Shown piece after piece: positions 5,318 to 64,000 of a stretch of 64,000 nucleotides of DNA. The translations under genes and the position numbers were made by a program. Numbering within the stretch: position 1 is the first letter of the stretch; every line of letters begins with the position of its first letter. The notes under the pieces are model-generated. The model worked only from the letters and a program-made list of their open reading frames with translations. It was not told the DNA's origin and made no database searches. The stretch covers positions 4,640,001-4,704,000 of the forward strand of contig OY759599.1 in the NCBI GenBank assembly GCA_963662465.1, in the 5' to 3' direction. Source of the DNA: Desulfatiglandales bacterium (GTDB lineage: Bacteria > Desulfobacterota > DSM-4660 > Desulfatiglandales > Desulfatiglandaceae).

Positions 5318-5559
5318 GTAACCGTTCACGGTTGCCGGTTTACAGTTGCCGGTTCACGGTTTTTCAATGAATTATGGGTTTCCTTCATACAGATTTACAC
5401 TTTCTTGATGAATCGTTTTTTCAATTTTAATGAAGGATGCGGAATTATGTTGGGATTGATAACCGCAATTTTTTAAATCTTCACAAGAGAACCCCATAAT
5501 CTTCCGTTATCCTCTGTTTTTCAACCGTAAACCGGCAACCGTAAACCGTGAACGGTTAC
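5318..5559. mobile_element. MITE-like element with heptamer-built TIRs and imperfect 8-bp TSD
   Basis: TIR GTAACCGTTCACGGTT...AACCGTGAACGGTTAC; flanks CTTGCTTC (5310-5317) and CTTGCGTC (5560-5567); AT-rich interior. Confidence 0.75.
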
Positions 5560-7502
5560 CTTGCGTCATCCAAAACGTTTCTGACCGTGCCAGCCATTTC
5601 CAATTTCATAACCGGCTTAATTAATAACGCGTTGATACCGATTGCCCCTGCTATTTCTTCCGATATCCTTCTACTGTATCCGGTACAGAGAATCACCGGA
5701 AGATGGGGGCGAATCTTTTTCATCTCGATGGCCAGTAAATCCCCGGTCATGTGCGGCATGGTCATATCCGTAATCACCAGATCAAAGCGGTCCGGGTCGG
5801 ACTTGAACAATTCCAATGCCGCCACGGGGTTGGTTCGTGCGGTAACCCGGTATCCCAGAGCCGTCAGAATTTGCTCAATAAGGCCGGCAATGGCAGCCTC
5901 ATCGTCGATGACCAATACCGATTCGTCGCCGGTGGGCACTGCTTTTTTTTCAGATTTTGGGGCCGATTTTACCGGGTTGGTTTCCATGACCGGGAAATAT
6001 ACATCAAAAATGCTCCCCTTGCCGGGTTCGCTCTTGACCGTGATCACCCCTTTGCATCCATCCACAATCCCTTTGATGACGGACAATCCCAAACCGGTTC
6101 CTTCCCCTTTACCCTTGGTGGTGAAGTACGGATCAAATATTTTCGCAAGGATATCCGGGCTGATCCCGCAACCGGTGTCTTCAACGCGTAATTGCAGATA
6201 GTTGCCGGGTAATAGGGTTGGATGGCGTTTTGCAAAACGATCATCCCATGGAACCTCCTTCAACCGAACCGTAATAACACCCACATCATATGCCATGGCG
6301 TGGGTGGCATTGGTACAGAGGTTCATGATCACCTGATGAACCTGGGTCGGATCCGCCAGAATGGCCGCATCGCTTTCGAAGGCGCCTCTGATCTCTATGG
6401 AGCTGGGGGTGGATGCCTTCAACATCTTGAGGACTTCTTTCAAAATGTATTTGACCCGGATGGGCCTGACGACCGCATCCGATTGCCTGGCAAAGGTCAG
6501 GATCTGCTTGACCAGCTCTTTTGCGCGAGTCCCCGCCTTATAGATCTGATTCAGATCAGCGTACAGATCGCTTCCTTCAGCGACGCTCATCTTTCCCAGT
6601 TCCGCATAGCCGATGACAGCTGAAAGGATGTTATTGAAATCATGGGCAATGCCGCCTGCCAGGGTGCCGATGGCCTCCATCTTCTGGGCCTGCTGAAGTC
6701 GGGCCTCCGCATTGCGATGTTCGGTAATGTCTTTTAACAGACCGACCATTCCGGTGACCTCTCCGGAGGGATTGAGGTTGGGGGCGCCACTGAGGTTGAA
6801 AAGACGCGACGTGCCGTCTTTGTTCAGCATGGAAATAATTTGATCTCTGATGATATTTTTGCCATTCCTGACCCTTTTAAATAAATAGATACATGCCCCG
6901 GCATCTTTTTCTTTCACGAAGTCCACAAAGTATTTTCCCAGGGTCTCGTCATTCCCGTACCCCATTATTTCTCTCCATGCGGGATTCACATAGGTAAATG
7001 ACCCATCCACCCCCAGGGTGTAAATAATATCCGGTGCATTTTCGCTGAGAGATCTGAACTTCTCTTCGCTCTTGCGAAGTGTTTCCTCCGAGCGCGCCCT
7101 CCCCAGGGCGTAGCGGATGGAACGCTGCAGCAAATCGGCGGTGAGTGTGGTCTTATTGAGGTAGTCGGAAGCCCCCATTTCCATGGCCGCCATATCCACC
7201 CGGGTGTCCCCCTGGCTGGTGAGCAGAATCATGGGGGCACGGATCTCCAGGTCAACGGCACGCCGCAGCAGTTCCAAACCGTTTCGTTCGCCTAAACGGT
7301 AATCGAGCAAATAGACGTCATGCCGATGCTTCTCCATTGCCGCCAGTCCCGCCTCGTAAGTCGCAGCCCATTCGAATTCAAATGGAGACTCCCCCGGCCC
7401 AGCAAGAAGATCACGGGTCAGAATATAGTCATCTTCATCGTCATCCACCAGGAGGATGCGAATCTTTGCGGGATTGTTGATTGTTGATGGTTGATTTTCG
7501 AT
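5556..7502 (-). CDS. Hybrid histidine kinase REC-PAS-HisKA-HATPase-REC (start uncertain)
   Basis: GTLAGGIAHDFNNIL H-box, NLCTNA, GTGLGLS, two receivers; frame open upstream of GTG 7448 to an RBS-preceded ATC at 7502. Confidence 0.92.
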   Translation of the reverse strand: MENQPSTINNPAKIRILLVDDDEDDYILTRDLLAGPGESPFEFEWAATYEAGLAAMEKHRHDVYLLDYRLGERNGLELLRRAVDLEIRAPMILLTSQGDTRVDMAAMEMGASDYLNKTTLTADLLQRSIRYALGRARSEETLRKSEEKFRSLSENAPDIIYTLGVDGSFTYVNPAWREIMGYGNDETLGKYFVDFVKEKDAGACIYLFKRVRNGKNIIRDQIISMLNKDGTSRLFNLSGAPNLNPSGEVTGMVGLLKDITEHRNAEARLQQAQKMEAIGTLAGGIAHDFNNILSAVIGYAELGKMSVAEGSDLYADLNQIYKAGTRAKELVKQILTFARQSDAVVRPIRVKYILKEVLKMLKASTPSSIEIRGAFESDAAILADPTQVHQVIMNLCTNATHAMAYDVGVITVRLKEVPWDDRFAKRHPTLLPGNYLQLRVEDTGCGISPDILAKIFDPYFTTKGKGEGTGLGLSVIKGIVDGCKGVITVKSEPGKGSIFDVYFPVMETNPVKSAPKSEKKAVPTGDESVLVIDDEAAIAGLIEQILTALGYRVTARTNPVAALELFKSDPDRFDLVITDMTMPHMTGDLLAIEMKKIRPHLPVILCTGYSRRISEEIAGAIGINALLIKPVMKLEMAGTVRNVLDDAR

Positions 7503-7519
7503 TGAAACCCCCTTGCTCG

Positions 7520-8692
7520 TTACTGGTTACCGGATACTGGTTGTCGCTCAGCGGGAAGAAGAAGGGTCACCGTGGTTCCCTCCCCCTCCCTGGATGTCAC
7601 TCCCAGGCTTCCTTTATGGTTTTTAACGATGCCATAGGCGGTGGTGAGCCCCAGACCCATCCCTTTCTGAGAACCCCTCCGCTTGCTCGAAAAATAGGGA
7701 TCCATAACTCTGGGCAGATTCTCCTTGGAAATGCCGGACCCTTTGTCCTCGATGGTCACCGCCACATAAGGCCCCGGCGCCAGATGAAACACCTCATTTT
7801 CCGTTTCCAATGTCACATTCCGGGCCTTTATCTCCAGAACGCCCCCTTCCGGCATGGCTTCGTATCCGTTGGTGCAGACATTGGTGAAAACATGCACCAT
7901 CTGACCATGATCAAAGACCGCGGGCCAGAGATCATCGGGCATCCGCAAGGCAACACGGCCTTGGAACTTCTCCGCACAACGGTTGACGCACTCCTCGATA
8001 ACCGGCCCAAGGGAGCTGGTTCTGAAGTAGGGCATGCTCCCTTTGGAGATCTCCAGAAACCGCCGGGTCAGGTCCTTCATCTGCAAGGCCGCATTGTATG
8101 CCATGGTCAGGTTTTCATGTGCCCTGTTTTCATGGCCCGGTGTCCCCGGTTCCATATCCATCAGGACGAGATCCATATAACCCATGATCCCGGCAAGAAG
8201 GTTATTGTAATCGTGGGCGATCCCTCCGGCAAGGATACTGAGGGTTTCGAACTTTTCGGTTCTGAGCACCTCCTGTTGCATGGCCTTCAGGGCCTCTTCC
8301 GCCTGTTTTCGATCCAGGGCATACCGGATGGAGCGTTCCAGAAGCGTTCCCCGAAGCTCGGTTTTATCCAGAAAGTCCGCTGCTCCGGCCGCCATGGCGG
8401 CCATGTCCACGTCCCGGTCTCCCTGCCCCGTCAGCAGAATAAGCGGGGACTTGCAGCCCAATGCCCCGGCCTCCCGCAGCAGTTCCAGCCCGTTTCCGGC
8501 CCCCAGACGGTAATCCAGCAAATAGACATGATGCCGACATGCTTCGATCTCCTGGAGACCTTCCTCATAGGTGGACACCCAGTCCACCTCAAAAACCCCA
8601 TGAGCGGTTTCCAGAATCAGATCGCGCACCAATACGAAATCGTCTTCATCATCGTCCACCACAAGAATCTTTATGATATCTTCACCCATCAT
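7520..8692 (-). CDS. REC-HisKA-HATPase hybrid kinase
   Basis: ILVVDDDEDD receiver; AGGIAHDYNN; GMGLGL; the 22 upstream in-frame codons to 8758 are repeat-derived. Confidence 0.92.
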   Translation of the reverse strand: MMGEDIIKILVVDDDEDDFVLVRDLILETAHGVFEVDWVSTYEEGLQEIEACRHHVYLLDYRLGAGNGLELLREAGALGCKSPLILLTGQGDRDVDMAAMAAGAADFLDKTELRGTLLERSIRYALDRKQAEEALKAMQQEVLRTEKFETLSILAGGIAHDYNNLLAGIMGYMDLVLMDMEPGTPGHENRAHENLTMAYNAALQMKDLTRRFLEISKGSMPYFRTSSLGPVIEECVNRCAEKFQGRVALRMPDDLWPAVFDHGQMVHVFTNVCTNGYEAMPEGGVLEIKARNVTLETENEVFHLAPGPYVAVTIEDKGSGISKENLPRVMDPYFSSKRRGSQKGMGLGLTTAYGIVKNHKGSLGVTSREGEGTTVTLLLPAERQPVSGNQ

Positions 8693-8754
8693 TTTCTCCA
8701 AACCGTCGTTCAATTTCCACTGTTCGTTGTTCATCAATCGCCAATCAACAATCA

Positions 8755-9210
8755 TCAATCATCAACGGTAGGCAGCTGAACAATCTGGACCCAGTATTTG
8801 TCCAGAGCCCCCAGGGTCTCCACCAGGCCTTCAAAGGTTACCGGTTTGGTGATGAAAGAGCTGGCGCCCAGATCGTAGGACATCAAGATATCCCGCTCGG
8901 CCTGGGAGGTGGTGAGTACAATCACCGGAATCCCGCGAAGCTTGGGATCCGCCTTGATAATTTTCAACGCCTCGCGACCGTCCATGCGCGGCATATTCAG
9001 ATCCAGGAGAATGATGTCCGGCCGGGGGTATTTTTTCAAATCGTCGTATTTCCCCCGCCGGTTCAGGTAATCCAGCAGCTCCTCGCCATCCTCCACGAAT
9101 GCCAGACTATTGGCGACGCGCTTTTCCTCGAAAGCCTCGGCCACCAGCATGCGATCATCGGCATCGTCTTCCGCCATCAGGATATGAATAACCTTGCACT
9201 GCTCGTTCAT
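8755..9210 (-). CDS. Single-domain response regulator (Rcp1-like)
   Basis: ILMAEDDADD, LLDLNMPRMDGREAL, IPVIVLTTS, FITKP. Confidence 0.95.
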   Translation of the reverse strand: MNEQCKVIHILMAEDDADDRMLVAEAFEEKRVANSLAFVEDGEELLDYLNRRGKYDDLKKYPRPDIILLDLNMPRMDGREALKIIKADPKLRGIPVIVLTTSQAERDILMSYDLGASSFITKPVTFEGLVETLGALDKYWVQIVQLPTVDD

Positions 9211-9223: not shown

Positions 9224-9357
9224 TGGTTGATTGTCGATTGTTGATTGTTGATTGTTGATTGGTGATTGGTGATTGGTGATTGTTGATTGAAGCGACTGCC
9301 GGCGCCTGATCGCCCATTTTCTACTGTTCGTCAATCGACAATCATCAATCGACAATC
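9224..9357. repeat. Inverted pair of heptamer tracts (TTGATTG/GTGATTG)n ... (CAATCGA/CAATCAT)n
   Basis: Read directly; right arm contains the stop codon of the 9345 kinase. Confidence 0.9.
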
Positions 9358-11543
9358 CTGTGGGGAAGGTCCACCTCAAAGGCTGACCCCACCCCCGGTT
9401 TCGATGTCACCGTAATGCGACCCCCGTGGACCTCCACAATCCTTCGGCAAATGGCAAGGCCCATGCCGACGCCCCCGTACCTGCCCATGGGGTGGAGCCG
9501 CTGAAAAGGCTCAAAGATTCGGTCTTTGTACTTCTCATCAAATCCGATGCCATTGTCCTCAACCGTTATCCGGCAATGGCCGCCGATTTCAAGGGCAAAT
9601 ACCTTGACCATCGGTGAAACCCCATCCCGCGCGAACTTGAACGCGTTGTCCATGAGGTGATGAAAGAGGTTCGTGATCCGTAATGCGTCTCCCTCAAGAA
9701 AGGGCAAATCCCCGATCTCCACGCACCCTCCCAGCCCCTTGTATCGGTTTTCAGCCAGCTCCAATGACACCTCCCTTACCAAACGGTCCATATCAACCGT
9801 CACCCATGAAAGGGAACCGGATCGAATACGGGAAAAGAGCAAAAGGCTATTGAGCATTTTCCGCATGCGGTCCGTGGACCGCTGCATGCGATCGATGTAG
9901 TCCTTTCCTTTTAGGCCCAGTTCGTTTGAATATCCCTTTTTCAGGCGATCCCCAAAGGTCCGCACCTTGCGAAGAGGCTCCTGCAAGTGGTGAGAGGCGG
10001 CAAAGGTAAGGTGCTCCAGTTCCTGATTGGTCCGGGTCAGTTCAAACATGGCCCTTTCCAGTTTTTTCTGGGTCTCTTTCTGCTGGGAAATATCCACTCC
10101 CACACCCACCAGACCCATTTTTTCGCCCACATCAAAACGTCTTCCCGTCAAATGGAAGGGGCTTTTCTTCCCGTCCTTTGAGAGAAAGGAGGCCTCCGTA
10201 GAGGCTTCCCCTTCACGAAACACCTCTTCAATGGAATTTGCCACCCGTTTTCCCTCTTCAGGGTCGAACAATTGGACGGGGTTTGCCTTTGACATCTCAT
10301 CTGCGGTAAGGCCGCAGACTTTTTCCAAATTTCTGTTCCAGCGGAGCAATTTCCCCTGACGATCAAAATGATAAAATACGCCGGGCATGCTCTCGATGAG
10401 GGAATCCCTGAACCGTTTTTCTTGAAACAGGGCCGTTTCCTTCTCCATCCGTTCAATATTCTCCATTTCCAAAGAGGCAATGGTTTTTTGAAGCGATTGG
10501 GTCATCGCATTAAAAGACTGGGCCAATTCACCGAATTCATCCGTCCGGTCCAGTTCAAGGGGGTCCCCCAGATCTCCCGCCTCGATTTTCCGGGCCTTTC
10601 GGGCCAGCACTTCGAGAGGCTTCACGATAAGCCGGTGGGTCATCAACCCCATCAGGACCACCGCTGCCAGGGCCAGGGCAAAAACGATCCCCAGCTTCCA
10701 TAAGAGCACGTAGGTGGGCTTGAGGATCTCCCTTTGTGACTTTTCCGTAATCACATGAAAGACCCGGTTGCCGAAGGGGACCGCCTCACTGGCCATTACC
10801 ACCTCATCCCCATGGAGTCCCAGAACGATCTTTTCGCTCGAAGGCGGAAGAGTGAACCCCGTGCCCCTGAGCACCACTGATGGGTCGGCGTGGGCAACGA
10901 TGCGGTTTCCGTCCGTCATATAAATCACCCCCCCGGGACCGGCATGAATCTGATCGATCACATGCCACATCTCCTTAAGGCGGATCTCCGCCAGAAGCAC
11001 GGCCCAGAGCTTTCCGGTCCGCACCTGCATGACGGGAAGGGCCACCCTCATTCGGGGTTCACCGGTCTCAGGATCAAACAGCACGGGGCCATGGCAGGCC
11101 CGGCCCAATGACAGCTGGGGAAGGTTCTCTTTGAGAAACGCCGTATCCGCGAAGGTTTGTCCCCTGGTAACGCAATCCCCATAAAAAGAGGCACAGCCCA
11201 GAACCTGGCCACCGGGGGTCACCAGCAGGATTTCGGCAAAGAGCGATGCATGGTTTTTGTGCTTGTGAGAAAGCAGCATGGACAGGGCCTCATCCCGCTG
11301 GGAACGATCCATGACCTCTAAATCCGCTACATCCAGGAAGATATACAGATGCTCATTTATGGACTTGAAGAACCCCGCGACTCTGGTGGATGCCATCCCG
11401 GTTGTGTTCGCCAGCTCAAGTGCGGCCTGTTCAAACCCGGACACATAGCTGTTTCGGATCACCAGCAAGCCCAGGAGAATCAACGGACCCAAAGCCAGTG
11501 CGGCGAAAATCAGTCGGAATTTTGTTCTCACGCTTCCTTTCAT
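9345..11543 (-). CDS. Membrane sensor kinase (Cache-HAMP-PAS-HisKA-HATPase)
   Basis: 2 TM, HAMP, PAS; ASHHLQEPLRKV; DNGIGF; GVGMGLAICRRIVEVHGG. Confidence 0.93.
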   Translation of the reverse strand: MKGSVRTKFRLIFAALALGPLILLGLLVIRNSYVSGFEQAALELANTTGMASTRVAGFFKSINEHLYIFLDVADLEVMDRSQRDEALSMLLSHKHKNHASLFAEILLVTPGGQVLGCASFYGDCVTRGQTFADTAFLKENLPQLSLGRACHGPVLFDPETGEPRMRVALPVMQVRTGKLWAVLLAEIRLKEMWHVIDQIHAGPGGVIYMTDGNRIVAHADPSVVLRGTGFTLPPSSEKIVLGLHGDEVVMASEAVPFGNRVFHVITEKSQREILKPTYVLLWKLGIVFALALAAVVLMGLMTHRLIVKPLEVLARKARKIEAGDLGDPLELDRTDEFGELAQSFNAMTQSLQKTIASLEMENIERMEKETALFQEKRFRDSLIESMPGVFYHFDRQGKLLRWNRNLEKVCGLTADEMSKANPVQLFDPEEGKRVANSIEEVFREGEASTEASFLSKDGKKSPFHLTGRRFDVGEKMGLVGVGVDISQQKETQKKLERAMFELTRTNQELEHLTFAASHHLQEPLRKVRTFGDRLKKGYSNELGLKGKDYIDRMQRSTDRMRKMLNSLLLFSRIRSGSLSWVTVDMDRLVREVSLELAENRYKGLGGCVEIGDLPFLEGDALRITNLFHHLMDNAFKFARDGVSPMVKVFALEIGGHCRITVEDNGIGFDEKYKDRIFEPFQRLHPMGRYGGVGMGLAICRRIVEVHGGRITVTSKPGVGSAFEVDLPHRIVD

Positions 11544-12986: not shown

Positions 12987-13073
12987 GTTTCGACGTCTCC
13001 TTTTGTTGTTGGGCGGCCGTCATTTGGTTGTCACTGCCCCCTGACGACTATCTTCCAACCTTGGCCTTCTTTT

Positions 13074-13120
13074 CAATCAACAATCATCAATCAACAATCA
13101 TCAATCAACAATCATCAATC
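13074..13120. repeat. Heptamer tract (CAATCAA/CAATCAT)n
   Basis: Read directly; encodes the kinase C-terminus IDDC and its stop. Confidence 0.9.
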
Positions 13121-15423
13121 CCAACGGGCAGGGTCACAATGAAGGTGGATCCCCGGCCCGGTTCACTTTTGACGGCAATGCTTCCGCCGTGCCGTTCCAC
13201 GATCTTGCGGCAGACCGTCAGCCCGATGCCCGTTCCCGGGTACTCGGATCGGCCGTGCAGCCGCTGAAACGGCTGAAAGATGCGCTCCGCATACTTTTCT
13301 TCAAACCCGATACCGTTGTCTTCCACATGGATGCGGCACAGGGCGCCCTTTTCGGACGCGTCCATAACGGCATAAATTTTCACCAGAGGCGTTACCTCCG
13401 GTCTCCGATATTTAAAGGCATTGCTCAGAAGGTTCTGCATCAATTGGCGAATCTGCGACGGATCAGCTTCAATGACCGGCAGATCCCCGATTTCAAAGAG
13501 CCCCCCGCATTCATCGATGGCCACCTCCAGATCGGAGAGTACCTTCTGTATCTCCCGTGAGAGATCCACCGGGACAAAAGTCTCTCCCTGTGTGGTGACC
13601 CGGGAAAGGGAAAGCAGGTCCTGGATCATGGTGGCCATCCTTCGACCCGCCCCCTGCATGCGGGCCAGATAATCGCGTCCTTTTTCATCTACCTGGTCTC
13701 CATATCGGGCCACGAACCGGTCTCCGAAGGCCTGGACCTTTCGCAGGGGCTCTTGAAGATCGTGAGACGCCACATAAGCGAACTGCTCCAGTTCCTGGTT
13801 AGATCGCATCAATTTTGCGGTACGATCTTCCACCATCTGTTCCAGATGCACTCGATGCTGCCGCAGTTCAGTAATGTTTTCAATGCCGGCGATCAGGTTG
13901 ACCGGCCGGCCTTCCTTATCTCGAACCAGGGAAACGGACACCTTGACCCAGACCTCGTGACCCTGTTTGTGAATCAATCGCTCCTCTCGATGGTAGTGGG
14001 GGATCTCCCCCTTCAGGAGCCGGGCCAACTGGAGCAATTCTTCCTCCAGGTCCAGGGGATGAACCAGGGATTGAAAGGGTTTTCCGATCAAAGTCTTCTC
14101 ATCATACCCCACAATCTCACAGAAGGCGCCATTGACCTGAACGAAGCAGCCATCCGTATCACCCATGACCATGCCGATGGCGGCCGTATTGAAAAAGCCG
14201 CGAAATCGTTCCTCGCTTTCCCTGAGAGCCGTCTCTTCCCGTTTTCGTTGGGCGGCCATTTCATTAAAAGCGGCGGCCAACTGCGCCATCTCATCCCTGC
14301 CCGCTACCGGTATCCGGTAATCCAGCCGGCCTTGTCCGATCTCGCCTGCGCCCCGGATCAGCTCGGCAATGGGTTTCGTGATGGAGCGGGACATGAAAAG
14401 GACGATCAGAATGGCCACCGCGATCAAAAAAAGGGAGACCACCAGTATCCGGTTTCTCAGGGAAAAAGCCGGTGCCAGCACCTCTTGAACGTCATGACCC
14501 ACCACAAGGATCCATCCCAGCCCCTGAAACCCCCGATATCCTTGGGAGCGGGCATAGGAATAGAGAATTTTTTTCCCTTCCGAATCCCCCAGAAAGGTAC
14601 CATTCTCACGCCTTATCTTCTTGAAAAACCCGGTCCCTGACAGATCTTCCAGGAATTGAAAGGCCTTGGTGCTGTAAATCAGCCTCCCGTCTTCCGTGAT
14701 CACCTGGACGCGGGTGGTTTCATATTTTTTTGTGGCCATCTCGGCCTCCCGCACAATCCCCTTGGTATCCACCACCGCCTTCATGACCCCGGCAAAGTCC
14801 CCCGTTGCATCCACAATCCTGATGCCAAGGGAGATGGCGTAGGTGCGAGAGCTTTCGTCATACGCCACATTGCCCACGGAAAACCCACTCTCCCTGGCCA
14901 CCTGCCACCAGGATTCATCATCCTGGCGGTAATCCAAAGTCTTATGGGTTTCCGCGATAACGGCGCCAAACCGATTGGTGACAAAGATCTCCCCGAAGAC
15001 CGGGTATCCATAGCGTCTCTCATAGTATTGCGCAATTTCCTTTCTGATGCTGTCGGAAAGGGGATTTTCAATCAGGCCTTTCATGAAAGGGGTGATCTCT
15101 CCCCCTGGGACCGAAACCCATGCCTTTTCTTTTCCATCAATCCATGCTGAAACATTGCCGAATTCCTCAAACTGCCGGTTGGATTCCATCAGAATCTTCT
15201 GAAACAGAAAATGAGACGTATGGACGCGAAGGGCCTCGCCCTTCAGATAGATGTCGCGGTTAATGGTTTTCAACATCTCCTCGGCCAGGAATATGGAGGT
15301 TTTGCCCACGGAATTTTCCAACGACTTCTCACCGGTATGCACCGAATAGAGGCCCATAACCGTCATAAGCAGAACAACCGGAACAAACCCGGCCAGCAGT
15401 TTAACACCTATTTTCATGTTCAT
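13105..15423 (-). CDS. Membrane sensor kinase (dCache-HAMP-PAS-HisKA-HATPase)
   Basis: FAYVASHDLQEPLRKV; NLLSNAFKY; GTGIGL. Confidence 0.95.
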   Translation of the reverse strand: MNMKIGVKLLAGFVPVVLLMTVMGLYSVHTGEKSLENSVGKTSIFLAEEMLKTINRDIYLKGEALRVHTSHFLFQKILMESNRQFEEFGNVSAWIDGKEKAWVSVPGGEITPFMKGLIENPLSDSIRKEIAQYYERRYGYPVFGEIFVTNRFGAVIAETHKTLDYRQDDESWWQVARESGFSVGNVAYDESSRTYAISLGIRIVDATGDFAGVMKAVVDTKGIVREAEMATKKYETTRVQVITEDGRLIYSTKAFQFLEDLSGTGFFKKIRRENGTFLGDSEGKKILYSYARSQGYRGFQGLGWILVVGHDVQEVLAPAFSLRNRILVVSLFLIAVAILIVLFMSRSITKPIAELIRGAGEIGQGRLDYRIPVAGRDEMAQLAAAFNEMAAQRKREETALRESEERFRGFFNTAAIGMVMGDTDGCFVQVNGAFCEIVGYDEKTLIGKPFQSLVHPLDLEEELLQLARLLKGEIPHYHREERLIHKQGHEVWVKVSVSLVRDKEGRPVNLIAGIENITELRQHRVHLEQMVEDRTAKLMRSNQELEQFAYVASHDLQEPLRKVQAFGDRFVARYGDQVDEKGRDYLARMQGAGRRMATMIQDLLSLSRVTTQGETFVPVDLSREIQKVLSDLEVAIDECGGLFEIGDLPVIEADPSQIRQLMQNLLSNAFKYRRPEVTPLVKIYAVMDASEKGALCRIHVEDNGIGFEEKYAERIFQPFQRLHGRSEYPGTGIGLTVCRKIVERHGGSIAVKSEPGRGSTFIVTLPVGIDDC

Positions 15424-49013: not shown

Positions 49014-49046
49014 TTCTATATCCCCCCCTCGAAAATAGTCCTTCCA

Positions 49047-52423: not shown

Positions 52424-53524
52424 CTAGTATCGATACCGCACCTTCCCATCCACCAGTTGCGCGGGATAGAGGGGAAAGTAAATATCGTGTTCCCCCGGCT
52501 TGAGAACGATTTCTCCAAAAATACCCGGATAGACAAACCCTTTCTCCAGAAGGCTTTTCACATTCCCCCGAGAGATTTCCCGTCCCTCCAGCAGACTGGT
52601 CAGAAGTTTCACGAAATCGTAACCACTGGCCACCTGATGGCAGAACGGTTTGCCGTAGGCCCCCTCGTATTTTTCCTTGGCCCGTTTGGCAAAAAGGTTG
52701 TTGGGGTTGTAGATGACGGCTGCCGCCGAATAGACGCCCTCCGCCGCCGGGGTCGACATGAGATTGACCGTCCCCGAAGATCCCAGCACGACCCCCTCGT
52801 GTTTTTTCTCTTTCAATGTCTCAAAAATCTTTTTGAGATGGCTGGGATAGCCCACGGCATAGATGGCTTCCACATCCTCGAGGTTTTCAATTTGTTCATT
52901 CACGGAACCGATTTTCCGTTCAAAAGAGGCGCTTTTGACCGTACCGCCGGTCTTCTGAAACCCCTCTCTCAGCCGCTCAAAAACCGGAACGCCGTATGGA
53001 TCATTCAAATACAGGATTCCCAGGTTCCTGACGCCTTGTTCCTTCAGGTGAAAGAGGATGGGCGCCACCTCGTATTCCGGTGAAGTAAAATACCGAAAGA
53101 CCCATTCCTTCCCTTTTGTGAGATCCGGGCTTGCCGCAACCAGGCCTACAAAGGGCACTCCCCTTTTCTCCGCCAAAGGGGCCAGGGCCATGCAAATGGC
53201 GCTTTGGGTGGAAAAACAGAGGATCGGCTGATGTGCCGATTCCAGCTTGTTGAAGACTTTTACCGCCTCTTCGGGATCGGTCTTACTGTCCTTTACAATC
53301 AATTCAACGTCCCGGCCATTGATGCCCCCTCGTTCGTTGATCTCATCCACGGCCAGGATCAGCGCGTCTCTCACATCCACCATGTGGGAGCCGGGGCCGG
53401 TCAGGGAGATGATGGCGCCGATCTTGATGGATTCCGCCTTTTCAGGCCACAGGAGCAGGGTCAAGGCGCATGCGGCTATAAACACCGCCGCAAGCAGGGT
53501 CCGGATGCGTTTTCGCTTCTTCAT
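52424..53524 (-). CDS. Periplasmic binding protein, paralog of 15458-16561
   Basis: IKIGAIISLTGP...EINERGGINGRDVELIVKDSKTDP; GF.YPGIFGEI. Confidence 0.88.
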   Translation of the reverse strand: MKKRKRIRTLLAAVFIAACALTLLLWPEKAESIKIGAIISLTGPGSHMVDVRDALILAVDEINERGGINGRDVELIVKDSKTDPEEAVKVFNKLESAHQPILCFSTQSAICMALAPLAEKRGVPFVGLVAASPDLTKGKEWVFRYFTSPEYEVAPILFHLKEQGVRNLGILYLNDPYGVPVFERLREGFQKTGGTVKSASFERKIGSVNEQIENLEDVEAIYAVGYPSHLKKIFETLKEKKHEGVVLGSSGTVNLMSTPAAEGVYSAAAVIYNPNNLFAKRAKEKYEGAYGKPFCHQVASGYDFVKLLTSLLEGREISRGNVKSLLEKGFVYPGIFGEIVLKPGEHDIYFPLYPAQLVDGKVRYRY

Positions 53525-53599
53525 GGGTGGTTGCTCCTTGCTCGTTACTTGTTGTTCGTTCTTGCTTGCCGGTCACTATTAACTCTTAACTCTTAACTA

Positions 53600-55882: not shown

Positions 55883-55934
55883 TTTTCATTTTCTCCTTTG
55901 CGGTTCATCCTTCGTCAATCGCCCTTCGAACTTC
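55809..55934. repeat. 24-bp inverted repeat spanning a gene junction
   Basis: GAAGTTCGAAGGGCGATTGTCGAA vs TTCGTCAATCGCCCTTCGAACTTC (23/24). Confidence 0.85.
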
Positions 55935-57980
55935 CCAACACTTCCCGCACCCGATCCAGCAGCATCTCCGGCGAAAAGGGTTTCTCCAGGAAATTGACGT
56001 CCGCATCCAGAATTCCGTGGTGCGCGATCACATTATCCGTGTAGCCGGACATGAACAGAACCTTGATTTCCGGCCGCAGGGCCCTCACCCGGTCCGCCAC
56101 CTCCCGGCCGTTCATTCCCGGCATGATCACGTCGGTGATCAGCAGGTGAATCTCTTCCGCATGGGCCTCGCAGATCCGCAGGGCCGCTTCTCCTTCCCCG
56201 GCCTCAAGGACCCTCTGCCCGGATTGTTCAAGGACCAGCCCGGCAACCTTCTCCATGCGGACCGGGTCCATCTTTACCCTGCCCGGTTCGGGCGAGAGAA
56301 CCTTCACCAGCATCACATCCTCTCGAAGGGTCCTTTCCAGTATTTTTGACAATCGTTCCACCACCCCGTTGAGCTCCAGAATCTCGGGTTTGAGGGCCTG
56401 TTTTCGACTGAAGGCCAGAAGCCCCTCCGTAAGGGCCGAGGCCGACTCCCCGGCATGTTTGATCTCAAGGAGATATTCCCGCAGGGGATCATTCCCGGGG
56501 AGTTTCATCAGGGACATCTGGGCATACCCTAAAATGGGGGTGAGCAGGTTGCGGAAATCATGGGCCATGCCGCCGGCCAGGTTGCCCACGGCCTCCATTT
56601 TCTGGGCCTGATGAAGCTGGGCCTCCAGTTTCTTTTCCCGGGTCAGGTCTTCATAGAGCATTAGTTGATCCCCGTTTTGAAGGGTCATGGGGATAAACTG
56701 GATCACCTTTTTTGCGCCATCCCCGCAAACCACCGGAAATGTCCTGGGCCGAGCATCCCCCGGTTGTGCGGTTTCCCGATCCCGCACCCAGGCGACCATG
56801 GCCTCCTTTCGCCGGCCCGCGTCGGGATAGGCCTTTTGAAACCAGGCCCGGCCGGTGGGAATATCCCCCAGGGTATATCCCAACATGCGCACAAAGGTCG
56901 GATTGACGTAGATATACCGACCGTCTTTTCCGATGAGTGAAATTCCCAGGGAGGATTCCTCCACCAGGGCCTGAAATTTCTCTTTTTCCCTCGCCAGGGC
57001 CTCCCTGTCCTCCAGATGGACCATCTCACTGACGATCTGGGAGGCCATGGCCTCCATAATGACCCGGGAGAATTCGGGAATATGATCGAGGGCATGGGAG
57101 GCCATATTCAGGGACCCAATCACCCGTTCTCCGCGAATCAGGGGGAGGACGGCCATGGCCTTGAGCCCTTCCCGCTTTTCAACCGCCCCCAGGGGGAGTC
57201 CCAGCCGGTGGTACACTCCAAAAAAAGGCTTGCCGGACATGACCATGCGGGCCGCGGGCACATCCATGGGGTAATGGGAAACGCTCTCCACGAAGGGCGC
57301 GGAAATCCCCTTGTGAAAAATGAGGTTCAGAGTGCCTGATTTACGGTCAAGACGGTAGATGCCGCCCGCGTCCATGCCCGATGCCGTGATGGCCGCTTCA
57401 AGGCACAGATCCAGGCCCTGGGAAAGGGTCTCGGCATCGTTCAGGGCCAGACCCAGGTCCCGCTGGACCCGCATGACCGACTCGGCGCGCCGTCGCTCTT
57501 CCATCTCCCGCCGCAACTGTTCGTTGGCCACCCGGAGAGAATCGGTTCTTTCCAGCACCATGGTTTCAAGGCGCAGGCGGTAATCCTCCAGTTCCCGGAC
57601 CGCCTGTCGCTTCTCCATCACATTCCGGATGCTTCCGGCCAGGAGCTCGGCCGAGAGTTCATCCTTTGCCAGATAGTCGGAAGCCCCCCGCCGCATGGCA
57701 TTGACCGCCAGATCCTGGTCCCGCATGCCCGTGAGAAATATAACCGGCATGGGAACCCGCCCCTCATCCCTGGACAAGATTTCCAGAAATTCCATGCCGT
57801 TGATATCCGGCAGCCGGTAGTCCAGCAGCAGGCAATCCACACCTCCGGATCGGCACAGGGCCAGCCCCTCTTTCCCGGTAAAGGCCCGAAGGACGGCGTC
57901 CGGGTTGAACCCGGCTTCCGCCAGGAGGTCCCCAACAATCTCCTGGTCGTCCGGGTCGTCATCCACCACCAGGAGGGTGG
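55915..57980 (-). pseudogene. REC-GAF-PAS-HisKA-(deleted HATPase)-partial REC kinase
   Basis: MAHDFRN H-box; DPVRME joined to KVAGLVLEQ at ~56251; 5' end merges into heptamer tract with no ATG/RBS. Confidence 0.85.
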
Positions 57981-59155
57981 GATTGGTGATTGTTGATTGT
58001 TGATTGTCGATTGTTGATTGGTGATTGGTGATTGGTGATTGGTGATTGGTGATTGGTGATTGGTGATTGGTGATTGTTGATTGGTGATTGGTGATTGGTG
58101 ATTGGTGATTGAAGAGCCTCTATTTCTCTTTGCGTCTTTGCGTCTTTGCGAGAGATATTTTCATCGCCTATCAACAATCGCCAATCAACAATCCCAGCGG
58201 TGACGCGGATTTCCCCGTGGTCCGGAGTGAATTTCACCGCATTGGACAGGAGATGGTACACCATCTGCCGAATGCTGCGTTTGTTCACCCATACTTCGGT
58301 TCCTTCCAGATTTTCGGAAATATTGAGTGTAAGGCTTATGGCGCGTTTAAAGGCGTTCTCCTTTACCATGTTGAGGCTCTCCTCCAGGAGGTCCCGCACA
58401 TGAACCGCACCCTGTTCCAGCGCCGTCTCCCCGTTTTCCTCCAGGCTGACGAGATCCAGGATGTGGTCAATCATGGTCAGCAGATGCTTTCCGCTTTCCA
58501 GGATGTCCCCCACGTACGCCATCTGCCTGGGGTTGAGTTTACCGAAATACTGTGCCATCAACACTTCTGAAAAGCCGATGACGGCGTTTAAGGGCGTCCG
58601 CAGTTCATGGCTCATGGCGCCGAGGAACTCGCTCTTGGCAAGGCTTGCCGCTTCGGCCTCTTCCTTGGCCCCTACCAGTTCACGGGTACGTTCCAGCACC
58701 TGATGCTCCAGCTCCGTCTTGCCCCGAGCCAATGCTTGACAGAGTTCTTGGTTTTCCCGGCGCAGTTTCCGTTTTTGAAGCGCCTGGGCCACGGTATTTT
58801 CGAGGCGGCTGATATCCTCCAGGGGTTTGGTCAGGTAATCGAAGGCCCGGTCGTCCCGCAAGGCTTCTATGGCGCCTTTCATGTTGCCGAAACCGGTCAG
58901 GATAATCACCTGGATATCTTGATCCATTTCCTTGATCCGCCGCATGAACGAAAGGCCGTCCATGCCCGGCATGCGAACGTCGGTGATGACCAGATCAAAG
59001 GGACGGGACCGCAGCAGCGCCAGCCCTTCCCGTCCGGTGGAAGCGCACTCCATATGGTAATTCGATTCCGCCAGAACCCGCCGAAGGGTCTCCAGGATCT
59101 CCGGCTCGTCATCCACCATCAGAATTCGCTCGTTCATTTCTCTACCTTTCCCCAT
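57959..59155 (-). pseudogene. REC-HisKA kinase truncated inside HATPase at repeat tract
   Basis: [20 protein letters not shown], then repeat-encoded IVDWRL..(QSPITNH)n; G1/G2 boxes absent. Confidence 0.85.
57980..58195. repeat. Longest heptamer element: ~18 x (GTGATTG/TTGATTG), (CTTTGCGT)x3, inverted CAATC arm
   Basis: Read directly. Confidence 0.92.
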
Positions 59156-60368
59156 CCTGATATTTTGCCCGGATGGTCAGGATTTCATCCCTGGCGGCAA
59201 AAAAGGCGTCCACCACCTTCGGGTCGAAATGGCTTCCCCTCCCTTCCCGGATGATCTCAAAGGCTTTTTCCAGGGAAAACGGTTCTTTGTACAGCCGCGT
59301 GGAGGTGAGGGCGTCAAACACGTCCGCAATGGCCGTGATCCGTCCGGCCAGGGGAATTTGTTTCCCCTTGAGCCCTTTGGGATAGCCGGTTCCGTCCCAT
59401 TTTTCATGATGGGTGGCGGCAATAACCTCGGCCAGTTTGATAAACCCTGAATCAGCGCCTTTGAGTATCTGCTGTCCCATCACCGAATGCTGTCTCATCA
59501 ATTTCCATTCAGCCGAATCCAGTTTTCCGGGTTTCATGAGGATTCGATCGGGAATGCCGATCTTTCCCACATCGTGCATGCCGGCCGCATAGAGGATGTT
59601 CTCCACAATCTTTTCATTCAATCCCATTTTCCGGGCAACCGCCTCCGCATAGTTGCTCATGCGCAGAATGTGAGCGGCGGTATTTTCATCCTTATATTCA
59701 GCGGCCCGGGAGAGGCGGTAAATGGTGCCGAGAGAGACTTTCTTGAGCTTTTCAAACGTTTTCCGGAGTTGCTCCGTCCTTTCGGCCACCTCTGCTTCCA
59801 GTTCCTTCTGATAATTCAGCATATGGTCATGATACGCCTTCACCTTCACCGAGGATCGGACCCTGGCCTGCAACTCCGCCATATCCACCGGTTTGCTCAA
59901 GAAATCATCCGCGCCCGCCCGCAAGGCCCTGATCCTCGCCTTTGTCTCCTTGAGGGCGGTCACCATAACCACCGAGATCATTTGGGTGGCGGCATCCTGT
60001 TTCAGTCGCTCAGCCACCTCGAAACCGTCCATTCCGGGCATCATGACATCCAGCAGAATCACATCCGGCGGGTCTTCCCTGGCCGAATCGAGGGCCTTCA
60101 AACCGTTCTCCGCCAGGGTTACCTCATAACCGAGGGGCAGCAACATGGCCTCCATGAGGCGAAGGTTTCGCTCTTCATCATCCACCACCAAAACCCTTGG
60201 ATTGTTGATCCTTGGATTGTCGATTGTTGATTGTTGATTGTTGATTGAAGGCGCCGCTTGGCTTCTTGGGTTCATGGACACACCTCCGGGACCATTATTG
60301 GATTGGTGATTGTTGGATTGGTGATTGGCGATTGAAGGCGCCGCTTGGCTTTTTGGGTTCATGGACAC
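59142..60368 (-). CDS. REC + HD-GYP cyclic di-GMP phosphodiesterase (RpfG-like)
   Basis: HDVGKIG, HHEKWDGTGYP, ADVFDAL; duplicated start region. Confidence 0.94.
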   Translation of the reverse strand: MSMNPKSQAAPSIANHQSNNHQSNNGPGGVSMNPRSQAAPSINNQQSTIDNPRINNPRVLVVDDEERNLRLMEAMLLPLGYEVTLAENGLKALDSAREDPPDVILLDVMMPGMDGFEVAERLKQDAATQMISVVMVTALKETKARIRALRAGADDFLSKPVDMAELQARVRSSVKVKAYHDHMLNYQKELEAEVAERTEQLRKTFEKLKKVSLGTIYRLSRAAEYKDENTAAHILRMSNYAEAVARKMGLNEKIVENILYAAGMHDVGKIGIPDRILMKPGKLDSAEWKLMRQHSVMGQQILKGADSGFIKLAEVIAATHHEKWDGTGYPKGLKGKQIPLAGRITAIADVFDALTSTRLYKEPFSLEKAFEIIREGRGSHFDPKVVDAFFAARDEILTIRAKYQDGER

Positions 60369-60462
60369 ACCTCCATAACAATTGGTATTTCAGCGTTAAG
60401 GGTTGGCTCAATCGACAATCAACAATCAACAATCAACAATCAACAATCGACAATCAACAATC
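60200..60462. repeat. Heptamer tracts with 45-bp direct repeat (87-bp period) and inverted CAATCAA arm
   Basis: 60243-60287 vs 60330-60374 (1 mismatch); (CAATCAA)n at 60409-60462. Confidence 0.9.
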
Positions 60463-62307
60463 CCCCACCGCCCTTCTCAGCTCCCGCATTCGGGGGGGTT
60501 TGCTCAGGATCACATCCACATGGGGGATCTTCTTCCCTTCGGATTGCAGCATTTTTCCCCAGCCGGTGAGGAGAATGACCGGCGTGTCTGAGGATTCGGC
60601 CTTGATGTGTTTCGCCACCTCCCGACCGTCCATATAGGGCATGCCCAGATCGGTCACCACCAGCTCAAAGGGTTTCCCCCGTTTTCGGGCGTCATAAAAG
60701 GCTTTGAGACCCTCGGCGCCGCTGTAGGCGATCTTTACCCGGTGGCCGTCCGTTTCAAACATCCCTTGGAGGAGACTGAGCAGGGCCGGTTCATCATCGA
60801 TGGCCAGTATCCGCATGGGGGATGCGGGCATGGGCATCTCATGGGATATTTCGCTTACGGGTTCATCCCCTTCACGGGAAATGGGAAAGAGCAGCCGCAC
60901 GGATGTTCCCTCGCCGGGCTCGCTTTCAATCTGAATCTCCCCGTCGTGCCGTTCCATGATCCCGTGTACCGTGGCCAGCCCCAGGCCCGTTCCTCCGGCC
61001 CCTTTCGTTGAAAAAAAGGGTTCCAGACATCGATCTTTTTCCTGTTTCCCCATCCCCGTTCCGGAATCCTTCACCTGAAGGAATATGTCGTCTTCGGAAA
61101 TCCCGGTGCCGAGGGTTATGACGCCGCCTCCCGGCATGGCGTCGGCGACGTTGAAGATCAGGTTGATCAGGGCCTGGCGAATCTCGCTTTCCAGGCCCTC
61201 CACAAGGGGAAGGGGGTCCGTCGGTTCGGTCTTGACCTCGATCATGATCCCCTTGCGGTGGGCGATATCTTTCCACCGGGGTTTTGCCAGTTCCATGGCC
61301 TGAATGACCATTTGGTTGAGATCCAGGGGACCGAGGCACTGACTTTCCGGCGTGGTGCGGTAAAAGGACCGCATTCTCTCCACGATCCCGATAATGTCCT
61401 CGCCTGCCGTTCGGATGATCGTCAGGTATTGGGATATTTTTTCATCGAGACCCTTTTCATGAATCAGCAGCAGGTCGGTGTAGCCCAGAATGGGCGACAC
61501 CGCGTTGTTGATGTCGTGGGCCATGCCGGAGGCCATCTGCCCCAGGGCCCGCAGCCGCTCCTGCCGCATCACGGTCATCTGGGTCTTTCGAAGGTCGTTA
61601 CAGGCATCGTGCAGGTCCTCATAGAGTTTGGCGTTTTGAGCCCCCAGCGCCACGTGCTCGGCCAATTGCTGGAGAAACTCGAATGATCCGCTGGTGAAAC
61701 TCCCCGGTTTCCGCCGCATGGTCAGCAGGACCCCCAGCACCTCGTCTTCCACGGCCAGGGGCGTCAGCACCATGGAACGGAATCCTTCCGCCGCGAGGCC
61801 TTCCAAGGCGGGGGTGTACAACAGGGATATATCCGGTTCATAAACCGCTTTCCCTTCCGCGCACCGGCGCAAACCGTTTTGATCAATGGGGATAATGGTT
61901 CCGGGATACATTCCCCATTTCTTGACCAGTTTCAGGTCCGTGGTCCCCGTGGCCGCCACCGTGAAAATGTCCTCGTCCTGATCCAGAAGCAGAACACAGC
62001 CGAAATCCACGGACAGGTAATCTTCCAGATATTTGAGGGCAACGGTAAAAAGGGAGTGCTTGTCCTGCCGTTGAATCATGGCGCGGGTCATTTGGTTCAA
62101 CAACCGCATCCGTTTCAATTGGTGCTGAAGACGGTCCTCTTTCTTTTTTAACTGCTCACAGGCACGAACCAGTTGGGCGGTTTTTTCCCGGACACGCACT
62201 TCCAGATCGTCTTGTACCTGTAAAAGCGCCTTCTCGGCCTCCACCCGTTCTCGGGTTTTTCGTTGAAGCGTCTTTTCCGTTTGATTTCCATCGGACCACC
62301 CACCCAA
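60454..62307 (-). CDS. GAF hybrid kinase (GAF-HisKA-HATPase-REC), 5' end degraded
   Basis: GQMASGMAHDINN; NLIFNVADAM; GTGLGLA; RBS+ATG at 62398 is out of frame. Confidence 0.88.
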   Translation of the reverse strand: MGGWSDGNQTEKTLQRKTRERVEAEKALLQVQDDLEVRVREKTAQLVRACEQLKKKEDRLQHQLKRMRLLNQMTRAMIQRQDKHSLFTVALKYLEDYLSVDFGCVLLLDQDEDIFTVAATGTTDLKLVKKWGMYPGTIIPIDQNGLRRCAEGKAVYEPDISLLYTPALEGLAAEGFRSMVLTPLAVEDEVLGVLLTMRRKPGSFTSGSFEFLQQLAEHVALGAQNAKLYEDLHDACNDLRKTQMTVMRQERLRALGQMASGMAHDINNAVSPILGYTDLLLIHEKGLDEKISQYLTIIRTAGEDIIGIVERMRSFYRTTPESQCLGPLDLNQMVIQAMELAKPRWKDIAHRKGIMIEVKTEPTDPLPLVEGLESEIRQALINLIFNVADAMPGGGVITLGTGISEDDIFLQVKDSGTGMGKQEKDRCLEPFFSTKGAGGTGLGLATVHGIMERHDGEIQIESEPGEGTSVRLLFPISREGDEPVSEISHEMPMPASPMRILAIDDEPALLSLLQGMFETDGHRVKIAYSGAEGLKAFYDARKRGKPFELVVTDLGMPYMDGREVAKHIKAESSDTPVILLTGWGKMLQSEGKKIPHVDVILSKPPRMRELRRAVGDC

Positions 62308-62414
62308 TGGATTCTTCCACGGGCCGCCCGCGGCCCCGTTTTTCAGGGCTTCCCCCCCCCCTGCTTGTCACCAAAATCTGCAACGGTTTTTGTTCCATCT
62401 CTTCGCCTCCGGCG

Positions 62415-62506
62415 AGTTAATAGTTAATAGTTAATAGTTGAGGAGAAATCGTCTATTCCTTCACTTTTCACTTTTCACTCTTCACTCTTCACTTTTCACT
62501 CTTCAC
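62415..62506. repeat. Heptamer tracts (AGTTAAT)n and (TTCACTT/TTCACTC)n
   Basis: Read directly; encodes VKSEK and the stop of the last gene. Confidence 0.88.
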
Positions 62507-64000
62507 TGCCTTTCCGGGCAGAATCGACCCCAAAACGGTTTTCAATTCCGCTATCTGATAGGGCTTGGGCATGGCGCCGCAAAACCCGTAGGCCCGAAAA
62601 TCGCTCATGACCGGATCATTGAAGTAGCCGCTGGACACGACGGCTTTCACGTTCGGATCGATGGCCATGAGCTTTTTGAGGGTCTCCACGCCGCCCATGC
62701 CGTCCTTGATGGTCAAATCCAGGATCACCGCATCAAAGGGGGTTCCAGCCGTCTTTTGGGCCTTGTACAATCGAACGGCTTCAGCGCCGTCCCCGACCGT
62801 TTGGGCATCGTACCCCAGACGATTGAGCATCTGTTGGACCAGCTTTCGAAGCATCTCTTCGTCGTCCATAAGTAAAACCCTTTTGATTTCGGATTTGCCT
62901 GTCGATACAAAATGGGGGATGGGAAATGGGGCTTCTTCATATTCCGCATTCCGCATTCCGCACTCCCCATTCTCCAAGGCGGGGAGGAAGATGGAGACCG
63001 TGGTGCCGGCGCCCACCGTTGACTGCACGCTGATCCGCCCCCCATGTTTCGCGGTCACCGCATAGGCGGTGGCAAGGCCCATGCCCATCCCCTTTTGAAC
63101 CCCCATCCTTTTGGTGGAAAAGTAAGGGTCGAAGATCTTGCTGATGTTTTCCCTGGGGATCCCCGCACCCTGGTCGCTGATGGAAATCTTGACGTATTTT
63201 CCATGGCCCAGGGCGGCCACGGAATTCTTGAATGCTTCTCCCATCACCGTGTTTTCCGCCTTGAGCGTCAGTATGCCCCCTTCGGGCATGGCCTCCATGG
63301 CGTTTGAGAGGATGTTCCCGACGGCATAGTTCAACTGGTGGGGATCATGAAGCACGGGCCGGAGGTCTTTTGCAATAGAGAGCGTCAAGCGATAGTTTGG
63401 AGCGGGCGGCAGTTTAGCGGCGCATGCTTCGAGGGTTTCTTTTATCGACCTGGCCTTCTTTTGGGGGGCGCTCCCCTTGGACAGAAGCATGAGCCGGTGG
63501 GTCAAATCCTTGGCCCTCAGGGAAGCTTCCTCCGCGTCGCGCAGAAAAGGGAGGATGCGGCTTTCCAGCTCTGTTTCGTCCAGCGCCAGGGATACATTGC
63601 CCAGGATCATGGAAAGCAGGTTGTTGTAGTCATGGGCGATGCCCCCGGTCATCACCGCAAAGGACTCGAATTTCCGGGCCTTGTGGCGCGCTTCCTCGGC
63701 TTCCACCCGATCGGTCACATCGTCATAAATGGCCACCAGCTCACCGAAGGGGAGTTTGTACAGGCGGTTTTCCCGCCACCCTTCCCGGTCCCGGTCCCGA
63801 TAATAGCGGGGCGGCATTATTTCAGGCTCGCCCGTCCGCCACACCCGTCTCAGGGCATCCACCAGCCCGAATTTGTCCATTTCAGGGAAAAGATCCAGCA
63901 GGTTTTTCCCGATCGCCGCTTCCCGCCTGATCCGGCTGATCCTCTCCGCCGCCGGGTTGATGTCCTTAAAAACAAAATAGGCCCCGTCATCCATGGCCTC
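62489..64000 (-). CDS. PAS hybrid kinase, 5' end outside window
   Basis: GGIAHDYNN; NILSNAMEAM; GMGMGLA; C-terminal receiver. Confidence 0.92.
   Translation of the reverse strand, partial: EAMDDGAYFVFKDINPAAERISRIRREAAIGKNLLDLFPEMDKFGLVDALRRVWRTGEPEIMPPRYYRDRDREGWRENRLYKLPFGELVAIYDDVTDRVEAEEARHKARKFESFAVMTGGIAHDYNNLLSMILGNVSLALDETELESRILPFLRDAEEASLRAKDLTHRLMLLSKGSAPQKKARSIKETLEACAAKLPPAPNYRLTLSIAKDLRPVLHDPHQLNYAVGNILSNAMEAMPEGGILTLKAENTVMGEAFKNSVAALGHGKYVKISISDQGAGIPRENISKIFDPYFSTKRMGVQKGMGMGLATAYAVTAKHGGRISVQSTVGAGTTVSIFLPALENGECGMRNAEYEEAPFPIPHFVSTGKSEIKRVLLMDDEEMLRKLVQQMLNRLGYDAQTVGDGAEAVRLYKAQKTAGTPFDAVILDLTIKDGMGGVETLKKLMAIDPNVKAVVSSGYFNDPVMSDFRAYGFCGAMPKPYQIAELKTVLGSILPGKAVKSEK

Follow-up and report, generated by a model that had tools for sequence, protein, structure and literature searches.

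Heptamer tracts at gene ends in a Desulfatiglandales genome as probable arms of decaying four-helix-bundle cassettes

Heptameric repeats are known from cyanobacteria as short tandemly repeated repetitive (STRR) sequences. This report deals with such repeats in a stretch of 64,000 nucleotides, the window, from the genome of a Desulfatiglandales bacterium (G000:C1:4640001-4704000), where tracts of 7-base units are scattered through a cluster of genes for histidine kinases, response regulators and chemotaxis proteins. The source genome (G000) is a single contig, C1, of 8.16 Mb with 49.5% G+C, and its owner is probably a sulfate reducer because it has an adenylyl-sulfate reductase gene. An excess of heptamers in bacteria, and the hypothesis that slippage causes it, go back to Mrazek et al. 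2007, as summarised in PMC4679880 and PMC4692102; in the portions of these two papers used here, each deals with one unit at a time, namely GGGAATC of Xanthomonas and the Nostoc repeats (PMC4692102) and TAACTGA of Beggiatoaceae (PMC4679880), and slippage, G-quadruplexes or protein binding are proposed. The excess has been noted since 2007 and ascribed to polymerase geometry without test.

Two other described systems share features with this locus. The intervening sequence (IVS) in the 23S rRNA of Coxiella burnetii contains an S23p open reading frame (ORF) and terminal inverted repeats, with upstream tandem heptamers that vary in number; in one strain the ORF has a large deletion, and the insert with its heptamers is cut by RNase III (PMC4990558). 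ISDge4, an insertion sequence (IS) of the ISBst12 group, has a single ORF, the end GTAACTGCTCAGCA and an 8-bp repeat (PMC12898284).

We propose, with moderate confidence, that the tracts are the polar and rapidly turning over arms of a decaying four-helix-bundle cassette, which have spread with the help of borrowed transposases and recombination, while slippage has altered them and selection has acted as a filter. The closest relative used for comparison is the sister genome G010 (7.3 Mb, 97% FtsA identity, ~91% DNA identity across aligned blocks); other genomes compared include G001, G031, G017 and G094, and L-numbers (L025, L508 etc.) designate individual loci. Gene positions are taken from codon-model calls made within the present analysis.

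Cassettes, their deletion series and a transposing derivative

An intact cassette consists of a G-rich arm, a ribosome-binding site (RBS), a four-helix-bundle gene of family PF05635 and a complementary C-rich arm, in this order, and its heptamer unit is specific to it. A preliminary description of the window, made from its letters, had named four-helix-bundle genes among those that such tracts might enclose, and this was borne out: in G000 these genes adjoin heptamer arms, which are inverted on both sides at 7112917, 91040, 6454072, 7120682 and 7124325. The genome has 11 PF05635 matches, several of them truncated or frameshifted and one lying within the duplicated end of the contig, where a segment of ~102 kb (G000:C1:1-101900) recurs, probably as an untrimmed circular overlap. 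Among 72 full genes of relatives, the inverted match between the flanks exceeds the 95th percentile of mismatched pairs in 52, and seven is the best period upstream of 51 and downstream of 54. Moreover, units that form gene-less families in G000 enclose such genes elsewhere: GTTAGCC (L013, L018), GTGAAGA (L380), GTTAAGA (L372), GAAATTC (L382) and GATTGTT (L446).

Some cassette loci have further peculiarities. At G000:C1:87400-89000 and 7115600-7124600, the arms upstream of four-helix-bundle genes are amplified to higher-order arrays with a unit of ~105 bp, and one of these regions also contains a reverse transcriptase (RT) match at 7117082. L343 (G017:C43:1500-13200) holds five cassettes with at least three arm units in 12 kb, and in L526 (G094:C271) a lone arm and the cassette RBS directly precede an unrelated gene at its start, which gives the impression that the translation signal comes from the cassette.

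In the CGGTTNN family the gene is lost stepwise by deletion, ending in a bare hairpin. The intact form is L025 of G010, with a TIGR02436 gene; in L508 the first 8 and the last ~25 codons of an L025-like gene are joined in frame, L509 and L510 are shorter, and in L513, L517 and L529 the arms stand back to back.

The window contains a member of this family that has transposed. What the preliminary description took for two separate tracts, near 5318 and 5522, is a single element of 242 bp (5318-5559), a miniature inverted-repeat transposable element (MITE) whose 12-bp terminal inverted repeats, of IS66 type and with 12 of 12 matching ends, continue into CGGTTNN arms. The orthologous site in G010 is empty and has a single copy of the 8-bp target. 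In G000, 9 copies are near-full, and 7 of these are flanked by an 8-bp duplication; forms of 89, 80 and 25 bp are likewise flanked by duplications; G010 has 13 matches of at least 93% (40 candidates scored), and a duplication was callable at 5 of the 16 loci inspected. The 5' core of the MITE, with RBS and first codons, resembles the start of L025 (score 54, as against 32 for the best of 500 shuffles); a protein HMM search gave no match to the MITE interior. In other genomes, the 14-base end of the MITE also stands before single-ORF DUF6444+DDE_IS66 transposases (L255, L272), and among 91 matches there, some of them counted from both ends, the duplication measures 8 bp in 17 of the 19 end pairs that have one. 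A second MITE end type, with a duplication of 6-7 bp, is associated with other units, as are two further conserved end motifs.

An element of 25 copies whose interior includes a similar word was considered as a relative of the MITE and turned out to be an unrelated two-gene element, presumably of IS21 type. The mobilome of G000 is very rich in general and, besides these 25 copies, comprises 46 RT matches, 22 Y1-transposase matches and 5 integron integrases above the cut-off.

Period, polarity and placement of the tracts

Tandem Repeats Finder (TRF) reports period-7 arrays at nearly every position that the preliminary description had named; the tracts at 7520 and 50441 fall under its threshold, yet are visible in the sequence. 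The window contains 28 exact period-7 runs, and 100 shuffles gave a maximum of 3. Genome-wide there are 183 exact period-7 runs of at least 14 matches, compared with 0, 10, 0, 3 and 2 at periods 5, 8, 10, 11 and 13 and with none of period 7 in a shuffled genome, and 492 of 1540 TRF rows have period 7, so that the enrichment expected by the preliminary description is real. The tracts number 480 with the terminal duplication of the contig counted, and 441 (~440) once the second copy is removed. Only 11 of 72 unit classes make up 353 of the 480; 407 fall mostly in non-coding DNA, where 104 would be expected, and 185 are no more than 30 bp from a stop codon, as against 31 with random and 52 with random intergenic placement. 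The window holds 19 tracts, the median being 2 per 64 kb.

An assembly artefact was ruled out for those tracts that are bridged by short-read contigs. These contigs come from runs X1 and X2 (one sample of one study, possibly the source sample), the check covered the window from 37600 onward, and 0 differences were found where they bridge 38315-40314, 40316-41333, 44000-49894, 49865-51570, 51543-53780, 60429-62496 and 62478-63999; at the long tract 57981-58111, contigs enter from both sides and none spans it.

Each unit has one G-rich and one C-rich strand, with polarity assigned by G over C, since the alternative G+T rule misplaces GTGAAAA. Among the 392 tracts of classes with at least three members, G-rich arms have their matched inverted partner, sought within 300 bp, downstream in 37 cases vs 1, and C-rich arms have it upstream in 39 vs 1, which amounts to 76 vs 2 in favour of the order G-rich, then C-rich. 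Unpartnered tracts are polar at gene ends as well, the G-rich orientation prevailing by 55 to 10 at 0-15 bp past the stop and by 28 to 6 in overlap with it. Of five window hairpins that were folded, three go well beyond shuffles (z -5.4, -4.6 and -3.7) and two do not.

Other structured elements were considered. Integron attC sites have a core order of RYYYAAC then GTTRRRY and a linked integrase; an attC array was ruled out here, as the hairpins are G-rich first, many units lack GTT/AAC and the nearest integrase matches are >200 kb from the window. No Rfam match to the Gut-1 RNA motif was found in the window at E up to 1, and two inverted Acido-Lenti-1 Rfam matches above the gathering score lie at 28692-28788.

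Regarding stop codons, the eight C-terminal tails quoted in the preliminary description (SGNQ*, TVDD*, RIVD*, IDDC*, GIGD*, IVNS*, GDC* and KSEK*) all appear in the translations, and the asymmetry of stops between TTGATTG and CAATCAA follows directly from the sequence. The supply of stops does not, as had been suggested, account for the placement: at 0-15 bp past the stop, stop-free G-rich units are about as frequent (21 of 143) as stop-bearing ones (44 of 249), and only tracts that overlap the stop need a stop-bearing unit (38 stop-bearing vs 2 stop-free). Stop supply would therefore decide whether a tract survives in the last codons and would not explain why it lies there; it would be the effect of a filter rather than the purpose of the tracts. 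A comparison with G010 was possible for 22 genes that have their stop at a tract: the tail is changed in 7, including the kinase at 13105, whereas the other 15 have the same end point in both genomes.

The tracts and related features of the window are listed below (coordinates, strand, description).

5310-5317, plus: left copy of the 8-bp target duplication, present as a single copy at the empty site of G010
5318-5559, minus: 242-bp MITE in which terminal inverted repeats of IS66/ISBst12 type are joined to inverted CGGTTNN arms (5318-5361, 5522-5559) that enclose an internally deleted four-helix-bundle gene whose RBS and start codon lie at ~5495-5505
5560-5567, plus: right copy of the 8-bp target duplication, 1 mismatch
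7472-7545, minus: two C-rich tracts, also in G010; one of CCAGTAA that includes the stop of kinase 7520-8755, one of CAATCAA that precedes the receiver domain of 5556-7448
8731-8765, minus: G-rich GATTGTT arm containing the stop of response regulator 8755-9210
9226-9357, minus: complete hairpin that lacks a gene, in which a G-rich arm that includes the stop of kinase 9345-11543 is separated by a spacer from a C-rich arm ahead of the following RBS; z -5.4
13012-13122, minus: 111-bp stretch without counterpart in G010, arm at 13074-13120; the kinase tail is GIDDC*, vs QQQKERSKHV* in G010
29902-29919, minus: G-rich GTTGTCA arm; the unit also flanks a four-helix-bundle pseudogene at G000 6454072
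38291-38429, minus: GATTGCG arm and CAATCAA-type arm within the ATPase-domain loop of kinase 38038-39709
40394-40511, minus: second copy of the loop insert at 38291-38429, with three GATTGCG units, in an orphan C-terminal kinase fragment
40968-41050, minus: in-frame hairpin within the ATPase loop of kinase 40774-42612; z -3.7
44140-44183, minus: G-rich GATTGGG/GATTGTT arm past the stop of a CheB-like gene
45402-45470, minus: short hairpin from the stop of CheY-like 45467-45838 to the next RBS
46715-46741, minus: G-rich GGGATTG arm containing the stop of a HEAT-repeat gene
48632-48653, minus: G-rich GATTGCG arm at a stop
49047-49098, minus: G-rich GTTAATA/GTTAAAA arm containing a kinase stop
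49642-49657, minus: GATTTCG arm at the left edge of a 760-bp segment with another copy at G000 4149128 (85%)
50441-50460, minus: GATTTCG/GATTGCG arm at the stop of kinase 50457-52349
52375-52408, minus: G-rich GTTTTAA-type arm past a stop
53575-53619, minus: G-rich GTTAATA arm containing a kinase stop
55801-55819, minus: C-rich AACTTCG arm preceding a receiver domain
57981-58193, minus: ATPase-loop hairpin with a CAATCAC arm of 18.7 units, where the kinase breaks off and receiver-domain sequence follows in another frame
60200-60462, minus: G-rich arm with the stop of kinase 60454-62307, followed by an 87-bp duplication with two C-rich arms, of which the second falls within the N-terminus of the following gene; z -4.6
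62415-62507, minus: unmatched pair, G-rich GTGAAGA arm with a stop and C-rich AACTATT arm before an RBS; folding not above shuffles
62941-62972, minus: in-frame GCGGAAT arm in the linker between the ATPase and receiver domains of kinase 62489-64570; no arm at the homologous site of G010

The placement of the tracts at gene junctions, as first described, holds in so far as they are concentrated at gene ends, and has to be amended because several lie inside kinase genes. Genome-wide, 38 tracts are within ORFs, and 16 of these are in 14 kinase-like genes, a group that makes up 6% of coding residues; the intragenic sites are the ATPase loop, the linker between ATPase and receiver domains, and receiver loops. 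Among the paralogue matches listed, the tracts are mostly inherited, one clade keeping the same linker tract. In silico, the unit number sets the reading frame of kinase 38038-39709, as it would in a phase-variable locus: the two units observed lead to a stop at 432 aa, and one or four units to proteins of 554 or 561 aa. The contigs of runs X1-X3, which drop rare variants, contain no other unit number at this kinase. Phase variation and domain shuffling in kinases are possible, and decay gives the same picture; the tracts may hint at a source of variation in two-component systems.

Several genes of the cluster are broken: CheR is split in two ORFs (45887-46717), kinase 40774-42612 is frameshifted near its end (40774-40860), and 55915-57969 lacks most of the ATPase domain. 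The first two are not assembly errors, since short-read contigs bridge them. Other features of the window include a gene for the HipA-family toxin YjjJ amid the signalling cluster (27350-28663), in-frame 21-bp tandem repeats at 31001-31116 (30565-33274 region), which are outside the heptamer families, and a stretch of ~107 bp (55594-55701) whose central 40-mer occurs 14 times in the genome with best matches of 99-100%, possibly an IS end or a MITE. Moreover, an 8-bp tandem repeat (TCTTTGCG) lies in the spacer of a heptamer hairpin at 58127-58150, and similar CGCAAAGA runs are found near other tracts.

Turnover and the origin of the tracts

The comparison of sites between G000 and G010, which covered 2.07 Mb of the 7.3 Mb of G010, yielded both filled and empty sites at orthologous junctions. 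Of 357 clusters in G000, 60 were mappable and 23 of these are absent in G010; in reverse, 8 of the 42 mappable clusters (of 59) in G010 are absent in G000. One orthologous site has a different hairpin and unit in the two genomes, and shared sites often differ in unit, with both arms changed where both exist. The ftsQ-ftsA gap is filled with different units in G000, G001 and G031, and is empty in G010 and most others.

The course of events that we envisage would begin with the intact cassette and, as the CGGTTNN family illustrates, would proceed by stepwise deletion of its gene to the bare hairpin. A remnant whose outer end happens to match an IS end could then be moved as a MITE, as 5318-5559 was, presumably by the enzyme of that IS, and MITEs with other ends would bring other units. 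Regarding the duplication-free majority of arms in unique flanks, including most of the window tracts, we infer that they took the same route and then lost the carrier ends, or that they were copied by recombination between arms; afterwards, slippage would alter the unit number and concerted change would renew the unit. Finally, selection would retain inserts at gene ends and in permissive loops, and the tails quoted in the preliminary description may be understood in this way, because an insert in the last codons survives only if the arm supplies a stop.

Several observations weigh against this account. As to the MITE, the middle and 3' parts of its core, taken alone, resemble the cassette no better than shuffles do (43 and 342 of 500); G000 has no DUF6444 gene and no tblastn match to L255/L272 that could be the cognate transposase, and none of its 7 IS66 (PF03050) matches has such ends nearby. 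The four carrier-end motifs together concern only 62 of 440 tracts, and 17 of the 19 window tracts scored have flanks that occur at no more than two loci. Of the 72 genes of relatives, 20 are without a significant inverted pair, and direct matches occur at 13. Traces of the gene are rare near the arms: a four-helix-bundle-like piece within 250 bp accompanies only 11 of 356 clusters (controls 0-1), and among 80 metagenomic GATTGTT arrays one has the gene and 79 have none within the available flanking DNA. No more than 76 of 392 tracts could be matched with an inverted partner at a distance of up to 300 bp, about four fifths being without one, and unpartnered tracts before starts show no significant polarity (15 vs 26). 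Of the 31 sites that differ between the two genomes, 3 have an exact duplication of at least 5 bp, several gains consist of a lone arm of 31-46 bp, and gain and loss are unrooted for most of the differences. Within the window, 13012-13122 and 62941 show no duplication beyond 3 bp in comparison with G010.

Gains without duplication would be expected if the mobility were encoded by the cassette, i.e., if the four-helix-bundle protein, which may resemble the retroelement protein Avd, recognised its own arms as a DNA or RNA hairpin and inserted them at gene ends by means of a host enzyme such as an RT or HUH nuclease, MITE capture being a side route. The junction filled independently with different units, the enrichment at stops above random intergenic placement (185 vs 52) and the 46 RT and 22 Y1-transposase matches of G000 would all fit. 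We nevertheless hold this to be unlikely, given that the main units of the window have no cognate gene among the 11 PF05635 matches, several of which are broken, and that the sole element with clear insertion marks has IS66-type ends. Less probable still is an origin by de novo polymerase slippage with a 7-base preference and a selection filter, which would make the cassette arms some of its products. Copies that differ by exact 7-bp steps, short lone arms that arise without duplication and the many arrays without partner or gene speak for it; the concentration of 353 of 480 tracts in eleven unit classes, the fixed order of partners from G-rich to C-rich, the deletion series and the target duplications speak against it, and it leaves unexplained that complementary arms appear jointly at empty sites. 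The preliminary description had already argued against random slippage, rightly so in view of tracts that are polar, paired and missing at orthologous sites of the sister genome, and of one element with the hallmarks of a transposon. Its further suggestion of a dedicated repeat-generating or mobile system is not supported in so far as it implies a single enzyme: none came to light, the arms occur with two or more unrelated types of MITE end, and most gains lack a target duplication.

The last alternative is a selected function in the signalling cluster, with hairpins that serve as RNase III processing sites between cistrons and loop tracts that act as phase-variation switches of kinases. The hairpins at 9226, 40968 and 60290 do fold far beyond shuffles, the heptamer-bearing insert of Coxiella is a substrate of RNase III (PMC4990558), kinase-like genes hold 16 of the 38 intragenic tracts for their 6% of coding residues, and the frame of kinase 38038-39709 depends on the unit number. 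Yet the kinase count is inflated by inheritance among paralogues, other broken genes in the cluster have no tract at the break, a single unit number was seen in the X1-X3 contigs with their loss of rare variants, two of five hairpins fold weakly and many sites are empty in G010, which makes this function very improbable.

A bolder idea, which we put forward as doubtful, is that the cassette is a self-promoting element of a new kind, whose protein would recognise its own arms and drive their insertion or conversion at gene ends without target duplication, and from which bacterial heptamer repeats and ORF-bearing rRNA inserts alike would derive. If so, the arms would serve here as frame switches and as shuffling joints in histidine kinases.

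Comparison with described systems

The heptamer excess and the Coxiella rRNA insert were already published; this locus contributes an empty allele and a target duplication, ends of IS66 type, a series of deletions and a measure of turnover. Our literature search, confined to journals open without subscription, found no paper that links heptamer repeats to four-helix-bundle cassettes outside rRNA. The origin of heptamers becomes testable with this pair of genomes, because it offers empty and filled alleles, a deletion series from cassette to hairpin and a copy that transposes. In practical terms, the finding accounts for spurious protein tails and repeat-like loops in annotations.

With the long heptamer simple-sequence repeats, the tracts share the excess of period 7, the intergenic site, an orientation bias near starts and stops, some inverted pairs and the overlap with stops; they differ in their link to four-helix-bundle cassettes and MITE ends, of which the portions of PMC4679880 and PMC4692102 used here make no mention. 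With the ORF-bearing 23S IVS of Coxiella, as far as PMC4990558 was drawn on, the intact cassettes of G000 and its relatives share a four-helix-bundle ORF (PF05635/TIGR02436) between inverted repeats, of which the window has a remnant only. Their location is a different one, for the window has no rRNA match and its tracts lie between or inside protein genes instead of in a 23S rRNA helix; moreover, the present cassettes and their remains, most of them without a gene, run to hundreds, comprise many different units and include one that transposes with target duplication. Finally, 5318-5559 resembles members of the IS66 family/ISBst12 group and MITEs, as these are described in the part of PMC12898284 used here, in its ends, its 8-bp duplication, its many near-identical copies and its empty allele, and departs from them in an interior that comes from a four-helix-bundle cassette and not from a transposase gene, and in an end that runs into a heptamer arm.

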